Shown here in pieces: positions 6,371 to 10,488 of a DNA stretch of 32,744 bases (positions within the stretch are counted from its first letter, which is position 1; the number at the start of each line of letters is the position of its first letter). The notes beneath the pieces were generated by a model. The model saw nothing but the letters and a program-made list of their open reading frames with translations. It was not told the DNA's origin and did not search any database. This DNA comes from an uncultured Eubacteriales bacterium (lineage in GTDB: Bacteria; Bacillota; Clostridia; Christensenellales; UBA1242), in NCBI GenBank assembly GCA_948971535.1, contig CARFEX010000001.1, positions 8,321 through 41,064 on the forward strand, written 5' to 3'. The position numbers and the translations under genes were made by a program.

Positions 6371-6919
6371 TTATCTTTTGTCAAGAATTTTGTTTATTGC
6401 ATTTAACGTTGTTTGAATATCTATATTTTCTATTGAGTAATCATAAAACTTTTTATTTTCTCGTTCTAATTTCGCTCTAGAAAGACGAACTTCTATTCTA
6501 TCATCTGTTTCCCCTCGATTTTTTAGCCTGTCTCTTAACACCTCGTTAGGTGCATCAAGAAAAATGGATACACATTCTCCTTTACCTTTCATATATGCTT
6601 TTACTCGTTGCGTTCCATATACATCTATATCTCTTATATAATCGTTTTCTGGCTTTTTAATAGCCTCATCTATGTATTTTTTTATTATTCCATACATAAA
6701 GCCATGCACTTCTTGCGTCTCAAAAAAGTAACCTTGCTTTTCTTTTTGTATGAACTCTTCTGACGACATGTACTCATAAAATTCAATTCCATCAGCATTC
6801 TCACGTTTTGGACGAGTCGTACCTGATAAAATAAAATGCAAATTATCTCGCTTTAACATAAGTTCTTTTATAATAGTATTTTTCCCAACTCCAGAAACAC
6901 CTGATAAAATTATAATCAT
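6371..6919 (-). CDS. gmk: Guanylate kinase
   Basis: P-loop LSGVSGVGKNT, the motif SGTTRPKRENADGIEFYEYMSSEEF, and YG. The 182-aa length and layout match Gmk. RBS is AAAGGAGAAATC-ATG. Confidence 0.9.
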   Translation of the reverse strand: MIIILSGVSGVGKNTIIKELMLKRDNLHFILSGTTRPKRENADGIEFYEYMSSEEFIQKEKQGYFFETQEVHGFMYGIIKKYIDEAIKKPENDYIRDIDVYGTQRVKAYMKGKGECVSIFLDAPNEVLRDRLKNRGETDDRIEVRLSRAKLERENKKFYDYSIENIDIQTTLNAINKILDKR

Positions 6920-6937
6920 GATTTCTCCTTTTGATTT

Positions 6938-6966
6938 ATTATATCAAAGCAGTTTTTTTTAGTCTA
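6938..6966 (-). promoter_or_regulatory. Candidate gmk promoter with extended -10 (TAGACT-17-TGATATAAT)
   Basis: On the minus strand TGATATAAT corresponds to plus 6938-6946, and the -35-like TAGACT to plus 6961-6966. It lies about 20 nt upstream of the gmk RBS. Confidence 0.5.
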
Positions 6967-7018
6967 GCAAATTAGAGAACTTTCAGTTTAAAGACAAGTG
7001 GCGTGCAACTTCGTTCAT

Positions 7019-7117
7019 GCGACAAGCTATTGAAAAACAATTTTTTCAATAACCGCTTCCTTGCTTCGCCAAGCAAGCGGTTGACTGCTGTTTTAACAAC
7101 AACAGTCAGCTTGTCGC
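7019..7117. other. GC-rich 99-nt element folding as a perfect four-way junction (closing helix plus three hairpins); unclassified ncRNA or DNA element
   Basis: P1 is GCGACAAGCT (7019-7028) paired with AGCTTGTCGC (7108-7117). Hairpin 1 (7029-7050) has a 9-bp stem and CAAT loop. Hairpin 2 (7051-7082) pairs AACCG/CGGTT and CTTGCTT/AAGCAAG with a CGCC loop and a 4-nt bulge. Hairpin 3 (7083-7107) has a 10-bp stem with one C.A mismatch. There are no unpaired junction nucleotides. Confidence 0.45.
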
Positions 7118-7205
7118 CCCCTCGCACTGTACCTCTATCTTTATTAAATGACAATTAACATAATCATTTTTTATACACACCACATAAATATAAAAAGGAG
7201 GAAAA

Positions 7206-7496
7206 ATGCAAAATTATACAAATATCTTAGAAAGTTCAAAGGCCTTCAATAGATTAACACTCGCCCAAAATACAAGGCTTGATATTATTGGAGAACTTGA
7301 TGCAATAATTCAATATGAAAATCATATCGCATCATCAAATGATGAAGTAGTAAATCATACATTGCAAGACATAGCAAATGAAGAAAAGCTTCATGTAGGA
7401 CAATTATTCGGCCTTTTGTTCTATTTAGACCCAGAGTCAAAAACAATGTTTGAAAAAGGCCTTAACGAATTTTATAATGATAACAAAAAAAATTAA
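7206..7496 (+). CDS. Small ferritin-like / EncFtn-like (rubrerythrin-superfamily) protein
   Basis: 96 aa. Strong RBS AAAGGAGG 5 nt upstream. GELDAIIQYENH plus ANEEKLHVGQ (ExxH) resembles the di-iron ligand pattern of encapsulated-ferritin-type proteins. Confidence 0.55.
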   Translation: MQNYTNILESSKAFNRLTLAQNTRLDIIGELDAIIQYENHIASSNDEVVNHTLQDIANEEKLHVGQLFGLLFYLDPESKTMFEKGLNEFYNDNKKN

Positions 7497-7522
7497 GCAT
7501 ATCAGTGGATATGCTTTTTTAT
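7485..7522. terminator. Bidirectional rho-independent terminator between the ferritin-like gene and cwlD
   Basis: AAGCATATC (7495-7503) pairs with GATATGCTT (7508-7516) around an AGTG loop. An A-run lies upstream and a T-run downstream. Confidence 0.8.
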
Positions 7523-7523
7523 A

Positions 7524-8225
7524 TTACATCTGAAAATATTCTATTATACCAACTAAAATAGAATAACACATTTTTTCTCGATAGTCTTTTTGAACAAGCA
7601 ATTTTTCTTCTTCAGGGTTAGATAAAAAACCACACTCAATCAAAACACCTGCTTTCTTATGACAATTCAAAATAAAATAATCACCTACACTACTATTCTT
7701 TCTTGATAGTGGAAAATCACGAATTATAGAAGTCTGTATAGAATTAGCGAGTGCCCTACCAAGTTCATTACCCTTGCCATAAAACACCTGTGTACCTCTT
7801 GTAGAAGAAAGAGGAAAACTATTCATGTGCAAGCTAATAACTATATCAGCATTGCTATCTTCTATGATTTGTTTTCGTTTTTCCATTTCGCTACGTTTTT
7901 TATTTGGAGCATCTGGCTGATAAAGCCCGTTCATATCCGCTCTAGTAAGCACAACGCCAAACCCAAAACTTTCGCACACCTCTTTCAATGATAAAGCGTA
8001 CTCGAGATTAAGCTGACTCTCAGTTACACCACTCACCTTGCCTTCCGCACCGCCATCAATTCCACCATGTCCGGCGTCAATGACGATAGTGTGCAAAGGT
8101 TTTGGTGAACTCGATATTTTTGCTAGCGATGAATACAGCACAAACCCACTACCCAATATAATAATACATAATATTAAGGCTAAAATCGACTTCTTTTTAA
8201 TTGTAAAAAATTTAATTTTCATCAA
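7524..8225 (-). CDS. cwlD: N-acetylmuramoyl-L-alanine amidase, CwlD type (germination-specific)
   Basis: N-terminal TM segment, then Amidase_3 motifs IVIDAGHGGIDGGAEG and ADIVISLHMNSF, then GVLIECGFLSNPEEE. The 233-aa size matches CwlD. Confidence 0.85.
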   Translation of the reverse strand: MMKIKFFTIKKKSILALILCIIILGSGFVLYSSLAKISSSPKPLHTIVIDAGHGGIDGGAEGKVSGVTESQLNLEYALSLKEVCESFGFGVVLTRADMNGLYQPDAPNKKRSEMEKRKQIIEDSNADIVISLHMNSFPLSSTRGTQVFYGKGNELGRALANSIQTSIIRDFPLSRKNSSVGDYFILNCHKKAGVLIECGFLSNPEEEKLLVQKDYREKMCYSILVGIIEYFQM

Positions 8226-9373: not shown

Positions 9374-9396
9374 CATATCAAACTGATATGCTTTTT
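9374..9396 (+). terminator. Rho-independent terminator
   Basis: CATATCA (9374-9380) pairs with TGATATG (9384-9390), followed by CTTTTTG. Confidence 0.6.
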
Positions 9397-10460: not shown

Positions 10461-10488
10461 AAAAGCATATCAACAAATATGCTTTTTT
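10461..10488. terminator. Bidirectional rho-independent terminator downstream of prfA
   Basis: AAAAGCATAT (10461-10470) pairs with ATATGCTTTT (10477-10486) around a CAACAA loop, flanked by T/A runs. Confidence 0.75.

Follow-up and report, generated by a model that had tools for sequence, protein, structure and literature searches.

Palindromic repeats of the repetitive extragenic palindrome (REP), bacterial interspersed mosaic element (BIME) and MITE (miniature inverted-repeat transposable element) types are known mainly from copies that resemble one another in sequence. In Proteobacteria, REP, BIME and REPIN elements are mobilized by RAYT (Y1 HUH) transposases (PMC2817692, PMC3116915). Here we describe a 99-nt island at positions 7019-7117 of a 32,744-nt stretch of DNA from an uncultured Eubacteriales bacterium (the window, meaning the whole stretch that was analyzed). 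The island lies between a guanylate-kinase-like (gmk-like) gene and a gene for an encapsulin-cargo ferritin-like (EncFtn-like) protein, folds into a four-way junction and has further copies of the same build elsewhere in the genome. With REP, BIME and REPIN elements these copies share that they are short, extragenic, GC-rich palindromes which fold on either strand, often stand downstream of genes, are non-coding and are not catalogued as RNA genes. However, REPs are single imperfect hairpins of 20-40 nt, or doublets, with a conserved sequence and a 5' GTAG, whereas the build seen here is a closed three-hairpin four-way junction. Furthermore, REP copies number in the tens to hundreds, are nearly identical and come with a RAYT gene, whereas here about 10 copies per genome have their architecture in common and almost no sequence.

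BOX, RUP, Correia/NEMIS and bcr1 elements, known from Gram-positives and Neisseria, are non-autonomous intergenic elements of about 100 bp with terminal inverted repeats and strong predicted structure. Their copies can be aligned, carry target-site duplications and have a recognizable parent insertion sequence or modular boxes; in contrast, BLAST finds no second copy of the island, and no target-site duplications were seen. Integron attC sites are similar to the island in that structure matters over sequence and folding takes place in single strands; they measure 57-141 nt, may have branched ends and stand at the end of a one-gene unit. But attC sites need R and L core boxes (GTTRRRY), extrahelical bases, a central spacer and IntI, and the sequence and structure features on this list are absent here. 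SAM-I and other four-way-junction riboswitches likewise consist of a closing helix and three further helices, but their conserved junction and loop nucleotides are absent from the island, its helices are perfect on both strands, and no Rfam match to such riboswitches was obtained at E <= 10. Our full-text searches turned up no publication that describes closed four-way-junction intergenic repeats. Among the candidate structured RNAs that a human-microbiome survey lists, 250 are termed "palindromic" and most of these are terminators; an architecture of this type is not described there (PMC8040213).

On balance, the island is probably a DNA-level, REP/MITE-like structured repeat that belongs to a lineage-restricted family of four-way-junction intergenic elements. 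This family is defined by its architecture, namely a GC-rich closing helix of 9-12 bp around three abutting, near-perfect hairpins, with a total length of 83-128 nt. We favor a DNA-level element because both strands fold about equally, because the pairs are almost all Watson-Crick and because no unpaired nucleotides are conserved. The position of the window's copy, upstream of both neighboring promoters, argues in the same direction, since under the twin-domain model divergent transcription would favor the extrusion of a cruciform in the spacer where it lies. Among the four identities considered in the original prediction, the REP/MITE-like palindromic element comes closest. Promoter and terminator scans gave no evidence of a discrete small RNA on either strand.

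The fold can be read directly from the sequence. A 10-bp closing helix, P1, surrounds three abutting hairpins with zero unpaired junction bases, exactly at the coordinates first proposed. The 5' arm of P1 (GCGACAAGCT, 7019-7028) and its 3' arm (AGCTTGTCGC, 7108-7117) form a perfect inverted repeat. Between them lie the AT-rich hairpin H1 (ATTGAAAAA-CAAT-TTTTTCAAT, 7029-7050) with a stem of 9-10 bp, H2 (AACCGCTTCCTTG-CTTCGC-CAAGCAAGCGGTT, 7051-7082) with a 13-bp stem containing one C.C mismatch at 7059/7074, and H3 (GACTGCTGTT-TTAAC-AACAACAGTC, 7083-7107) with a 10-bp stem; no strand is assigned to any of these parts. A repeat finder recovered all four inverted repeats and showed that T7028, A7051, T7082 and A7108 at the junction can swap partners, which amounts to one step of branch migration. 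Minimum free energy (MFE) folding gives the four-way junction on both strands. Folded as RNA over 156 nt, the plus strand reaches -51.5 kcal/mol (z = -6.95) and the minus strand -65.9 kcal/mol (z = -6.86), and for the window's copy the minus strand is the more stable one by about 10-14 kcal/mol, varying with the stretch that is folded. As single-stranded DNA of 99 nt, the two strands have z-scores of -8.7 and -9.7, and 0 of 200 shuffles fold as well. Only one of the 40-41 pairs is G-U (minus strand, 7102/7088). The GC content of 0.43-0.47, compared with 0.25-0.34 in the flanks, bears out the description of a GC-rich island in an AT-rich spacer. The palindromes also give rise to a 60-aa open reading frame (ORF) on the minus strand (6972-7154) and to a 51-aa ORF of the same origin on the other strand. 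The former was rightly suspected to be spurious: a search of 5.8 billion proteins at E <= 0.01, which also served as a possible way to other copies of the element, gave it no homologue.

Comparison of strains revealed that the paired parts of the element change less than their surroundings. Ten near-identical contigs carry the element unchanged. Diverged strains, represented by contigs with variant EncFtn-like proteins, differ at 7-17% of third codon positions, and in each of them the element is retained with its orientation unaltered. Here, 8 of the 84 stem sites are variable, as against 7 of 15 loop sites (p = 0.0014) and 39 of 187 sites in the flanking intergenic DNA (p = 0.024), so that the constraint on stems relative to both loops and flanks is statistically significant. 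By helix, variable sites number 1/20 in P1, 0/18 in H1, 3/26 in H2 and 4/20 in H3; for P1 and H1 together, the difference from the flanks is pronounced (1/38, p = 0.005). The 5' arm of P1 shows no variation across 7 distinct strain sequences, and the single varying site of the 3' arm is 7108, where a change from A to G produces a T.G pair with 7028. In H1 the sole varying base is loop position 7038, and the H2 loop (7064-7069) is variable among strains. Two imperfections of the window's copy are paired in every diverged strain, the C.A at 7088/7102 (U.G on the minus strand) being C:G and the C.C at 7059/7074 being T:A. At pair 7084:7106, the window's copy has A:T and one strain group T:A, and others have a mismatch. 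An invertible segment (inverton) was also considered and rejected: all 23 strain contigs are colinear with one orientation, and the segment between the inverted repeats is just 79 bp long.

The island had been presented as if it were unique, and a BLAST search against its own genome, the check that the original prediction had suggested, indeed returned only the self-match. A scan for the architecture, however, gave eight more copies and a two-hairpin variant. For this purpose, the source genome (G000; 0.94 Mb, 938 kb scanned, 95% complete) was analyzed in two ways, by the MFE fold of every 110-nt window and by a search for inverted repeats that close multi-hairpin folds, ranked by energy per base. 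Strict elements had a closing helix of at least 8 bp, at least three hairpins, at most 25% unpaired bases and an energy of -0.40 kcal/mol per nt or lower. In both scans the most stable local folds were nine elements of one build (83-128 nt) and the two-hairpin variant. The nine are located at C1:15339-15437 (the window's element), C102:2329-2420, C13:1227-1317, C21:6421-6516, C28:5125-5207, C4:9739-9856, C48:2787-2914, C53:2905-3001 and C89:2399-2490, and the variant at C116:2476-2570, which corresponds to about one copy per 100 kb. No strict element was found in the block-shuffled genome. The block shuffle is the valid control here; a reversed genome is uninformative because palindromes survive reversal. 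Among other genomes of the genus, 340 kb of G114, which belongs to another clade, contained six strict elements and 340 kb of G087, which is nearer to the source genome by ThiI identity, contained none.

None of the nine strict copies falls within a long ORF, an extragenic location like that of REPs and REPINs. In the strict elements of G000 and G114, unpaired bases amount to 12-23% and are confined to loops or short linkers. The closing helices of the G000 copies are related (GCCGAAAG / GCGACAAG), with the weak consensus GC[C/G]G[A/C]AAG and resembling versions GCCGAAAGT, GCCGAAAGCAT, GGCGGAAAGC, GCACCGAAAGAA, GCATGCGAAAG, GCCACCGCAAGC and GCGACAAGCT. The middle hairpin often begins with AACC or AAACC, and the remaining hairpin sequence is unrelated between copies. 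By sequence, REP or REPIN membership was rejected, as the copies have this loose closing-helix consensus but neither a shared palindrome nor a 5' GTAG-type motif. As regards MITEs, the closing helix resembles terminal inverted repeats; the copies are not similar in sequence, and inspection of the ends of 10 copies by eye revealed no direct repeats. With filters off, and only then, a covariance model built from the strain alignment of the window's element detected the paralogues, on both strands and with scores of 21-43 bits. In congener genomes, covariance models recovered only G154, in a search that was insensitive because only 27-150 candidates were scored per genome; two weak R1 matches, in G011 and G017, were unrelated. 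The H1 palindrome was also considered as an operator and is not enriched, with 14 matches genome-wide compared with 15 for the control. At C48:2706-2945 and C116:2403-2666, copies yield spurious palindrome-built ORFs of 79-87 aa, which gene callers are likely to annotate.

One copy could be followed into other species. The C21 copy of the source genome sits between thiI and argR, and in G154, G114, G131 and G076 the same spacer likewise contains an element, which directly follows the stop codon of thiI; in G160 the version at this place has two hairpins. From the comparison of these sequences, the thiI-argR copy is kept across five species. Orthologues differ by compensatory changes in the closing helix (GCGCGCAAG/CTTGCGCGC versus GCGCGCGAGT/ACTCGCGCGC) and in the middle hairpin (CCTGCCA/TGGCAGG versus CCTGTCA/TGACAGG). 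The thiI-argR spacer is without an element in 24 other species, including those nearer to G000 by ThiI identity. In the near relative G031, nothing but a plain terminator (ATCCTACCGC...GCGGTAGG followed by T8) occupies the position where the middle hairpin and T8 of the G154 clade stand. In the thiI-argR spacers (L244-L249), this middle hairpin with T8 resembles a thiI terminator, and G160 lacks the third hairpin. Four-way elements may grow from, or decay into, ordinary terminators. Of the remaining G000 sites, none has an element in the part of G114 that was sampled. Since G000 and G114 sites are mostly unshared whereas the thiI-argR copy is kept, the family turns over between lineages and persists within them.

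Such turnover would also be seen if the elements were functionless palindromes, i.e., remnants of an old foldback-element burst or of template switching whose arms are kept paired by arm-to-arm correction (concerted evolution). Consistent with this idea, nearly all pairs on either strand are Watson-Crick pairs, no cognate enzyme came to light, and loops evolve faster than third codon positions, with 47% of sites variable compared with 7-17%. Unbiased conversion alone, however, does not predict the several-fold stronger conservation of P1 plus H1 relative to the flanks described above. In addition, nine to ten perfect palindromes of about 100 bp persist in a reduced genome of 0.94 Mb, and the thiI-argR copy persists in five species. 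We therefore regard a functionless origin and maintenance of the family as improbable.

The surroundings of the window's copy suggest a connection with gene gain. On the minus strand, the gmk-like gene (6371-6919; Pfam PF00625, E = 2.9e-22; NCBIfam guanyl_kin below the curated cut-off) is preceded by the extended -10 promoter TAGACT-17-TG-TATAAT (6938-6966), which had been recognized earlier and was recovered by our promoter scan with 10/12 positions plus the TG. A AATTTGCT(A/G)GAC...TATAAT motif upstream of gmk is kept in congeners. On the plus strand, the EncFtn-like gene (7206-7496) encodes a 96-aa protein (NCBIfam EncB_fam 1.8e-20, below cut-off; PDB 5n5e, 4.7e-13). The claim that the element lies upstream of both promoters, and is therefore neither gene's obvious 5' untranslated region (UTR), holds. 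The -35/-10 hexamers proposed for the ferritin-like gene vary among strains. A few bases before the ribosome-binding site of this gene, we observed a CATAAATA / CATATAA motif (7183-7190) that is constant among strains and recurs in many congeners (L018-L046), whatever gene lies upstream; it may be a candidate -10 element of a sporulation-type sigma factor promoter. The EncFtn-like gene is followed by a bidirectional intrinsic terminator (7495-7516, both strands; terminator scan) and by a cwlD-like N-acetylmuramoyl-L-alanine amidase gene (7524-8225, minus strand; Pfam PF01520, 9.8e-40). The terminators at 7495-7516, 9374-9390 and 10461-10486 have a common core, AAAAAGCATATC...GATATGCTTTTT.

In many congeners, cwlD stands directly upstream of gmk on the same strand, separated by a short spacer with a conserved promoter, and by this synteny the cwlD-like gene is the ancestral upstream neighbor of gmk. 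Directly beyond the element, the 36 bases of the minus strand from 7018 down to 6983 read ATGAACGAAGTTGCACGCCACTTGTCTTTAAACTGA. In two congeners that are among the nearest by gmk identity, cwlD ends in ...TCCATGAACGAGTCAAACTGA or ...TCCATGAACGAAACAAATGAGTAA about 30 nt before the gmk promoter. By its 9-nt match and its position, the segment 6983-7018 (minus strand ATGAACGAA...AAACTGA), which borders directly on the element, is probably what is left, now in decay, of the 3' end of the ancestral cwlD. If so, an insertion of about 505 bp (from 7019 to about 7523) took place close to the cwlD end. The inserted block would be lineage-specific. Besides the element, it would contain the EncFtn-like gene, a promoter region belonging to this gene and, at the far end of the block, the terminator, and the element would form the exact seam, at 7018/7019, between relic and block. 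In one strain group (L195-L199), the interval between the terminator and the cwlD stop codon (around 7517-7523 in the window) contains an extra gene for a 178-aa ygjV-like membrane protein (PF10688), which makes the cwlD-gmk gap a place of gene gain that varies among strains. Outside the species, the closest homologues among the 5.8 billion proteins have 75% (EncFtn-like) and 57% (gmk-like) identity, so that collections hold no intermediate genome with an empty site; the species is isolated in sequence space, although its GTDB genus has >150 species.

An element at the exact end of a block that splits an ancestral gene pair raises the question of whether it is the recombination site of a mobile cassette made up of element, EncFtn-like gene and terminator, comparable to an integron attC or a folded single-stranded attachment (att) site. 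The EncFtn-like gene occurs in at least five different contexts in 29 congeners, never beside gmk, the ygjV-like gene entered the same gap in one strain group, and structure is conserved over sequence, as in attC sites. Yet none of the 29 congeneric EncFtn-like loci has such an island upstream, and the other eight copies are not beside cassette-like genes. Moreover, the ends GCGACAAGCT...AGCTTGTCGC have no RYYYAAC/GTTRRRY core, and the perfect helices have no bulges, extrahelical bases or central spacer, so that attC was rejected as a class. Tyrosine recombinases are uninformative because they are ubiquitous, and G000 has only a fragment of one. Taken together, a cassette recombination site is very unlikely.

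Several observations weigh against the island being a DNA-level repeat. The assignment of the cwlD relic consists of a 9-nt match and its position, and it places only the near boundary of the insertion. Covariation at the locus, which the original prediction proposed to look for, comes down to the single compensatory pair 7084:7106 and is not statistically significant among six distinct sequences. The common build of the paralogues is supported by their model-fitted alignment, in which 96.8% of cells form standard pairs compared with 50.6% in shuffles and 42/42 pairs are altered on both sides, but these pair statistics are biased toward the structure to which the alignment was fitted. No Y1/RAYT transposase (Y1_Tnp, PF01797) was detected in G000, G154, G114, G031 or G143, whereas control genomes responded, and the ends of 10 copies, inspected by eye, revealed no target-site duplications. 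The copy number is low. Six or seven copies follow a co-directional gene, 3-86 nt after its stop codon, where transcription is expected; three copies, including the window's, lie between divergent genes and none between convergent genes. Finally, G-U pairs lean slightly to the sense strand, with 16 sense and 7 antisense pairs out of roughly 480 on each; this count covers the twelve copies with a co-directional gene, among them five G154-clade orthologues.

The last two points would fit a family that acts as RNA, forming a branched 3' UTR or intercistronic structure that blocks exonucleases, is processed by an RNase III-type enzyme, insulates neighboring genes or terminates transcription. The likeness of the G154-clade middle hairpin and T8 to a thiI terminator, with a plain terminator at this place in G031, points the same way. 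For the window's copy, this explanation implies reading from an unrecognized promoter. One candidate from the promoter scan is a weak minus-strand site, TTGTCA-17-TACAGT at 7154-7126, which ends about 7 nt before 7117; transcripts from it would begin at the closing helix itself, so that gmk would have a long leader with a protected 5' end. In addition, it is the minus strand of this copy that folds with the higher stability. However, the hexamers of this weak promoter are not conserved among strains, and the three copies between divergent genes are upstream of mapped or conserved promoters. At the window's copy, neither the terminator scan, whose one call in this region is 7495-7516, nor a separate scan called an intrinsic terminator; the separate scan also called none at most other G000 copies, and a U-run after the element is missing here and at most of these copies. 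In most copies, the folds of the sense and antisense strands differ in energy by no more than a few kcal/mol. No unpaired nucleotides are conserved, and G-U accounts for about 2-3% of the pairs, whereas structured RNAs usually hold a far larger G-U share. We thus consider action as RNA unlikely, and the REP/MITE-like DNA repeat remains our preferred reading.

A unique small structured non-coding RNA (ncRNA), or a riboswitch-like switch in which an upstream GACAAG serves as alternative pairing partner, was suggested by the high stability of the fold and by the failure to match any known family. The GACAAG copy is not at 7003-7008, as previously stated, but at 6993-6998. It thus lies within the putative, decaying cwlD relic, varies in one strain group and would swap a 10-bp helix for one of 6 bp. 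As the build is not unique in the genome, junction and loop nucleotides are not conserved and neither promoter nor terminator brackets the element, such an RNA or switch is scarcely credible.

Known classes gave no better explanation, in agreement with the view that the element is no recognized riboswitch, ribozyme or tRNA. Rfam 15 had no family match at gathering threshold in the whole window, SAM-I, NiCo, yybP-ykoY and tRNA-like families included. At E <= 10, the best match inside the element was a 15.6-bit miRNA model. Ten further family or candidate loci had no credible Rfam match at E <= 1, the two hits of about 24-25 bits being far below gathering. ARAGORN called no tRNA or tmRNA. In BLAST searches, the element produced chance matches only, nearly all in coding sequence, against 61 relatives and 154 congeneric species, and no match against phage and plasmid collections (blastn). 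The pattern GCGACAAGCT-N65-95-AGCTTGTCGC had 86 matches in genome contigs and 8 in viral contigs, all unrelated and mostly coding, and the 19-mer GCGACAAGCTATTGAAAAA had 16 chance matches in metagenome contigs. A match to the preQ1-II riboswitch at 6917-6971 (minus strand; 22.4 bits, gathering 47) was taken as chance because the alignment runs mainly over the AT-rich leader and the Shine-Dalgarno sequence. We also considered a SAM-I relic on the right flank of the element. In two congeners, the EncFtn-like gene has a true SAM-I riboswitch (54 bits; L030 1012-1096, minus strand, and L034 2196-2280, plus strand) at a distance of about 430 nt, and the 9-mer GTGCGAGGG (7120-7128 in the window, minus strand) is common to these riboswitches and the right flank. 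The alignment score of the flank equaled the shuffle mean, and the relic was rejected.

As a DNA-level repeat, the element may work as follows. Its palindromes would take up their fold where the DNA is single-stranded, or would be extruded where it is negatively supercoiled, for example in the spacer between divergent promoters, and could thereby buffer supercoiling. Watson-Crick complementarity of the arms would be held by selection, by arm-to-arm correction or by both, while the loops would drift freely. A folded or break-prone element could then mark sites of DNA gain, which would give it a role in insertion. A further-reaching proposal, which we make tentatively and regard as possible rather than probable, is that the elements are structure-specific genomic signals. 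They would form Holliday-junction-like DNA, or the equivalent RNA, that a protein able to bind or cut junctions reads by shape and not by sequence. Selection would keep the elements locus by locus, and they would arise at or replace terminators and create hot spots of gene gain. If true, this would explain why the EncFtn-like gene and, in some strains, the ygjV-like gene are found beside this copy.

For genome analysis, the family means that elements of this kind produce spurious ORF calls, can mislead the discovery of ncRNAs and may mark the seams of recent gene gain. It is invisible to sequence search and can be known only by its closed four-armed fold, yet it has lasted in a genome reduced to 0.94 Mb and in more than one species. 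If selection acts on the fold, some cellular machinery must read the shape of a DNA or RNA junction, and the family would then offer a testable handle on how cruciform and junction structures act in bacterial chromosomes.

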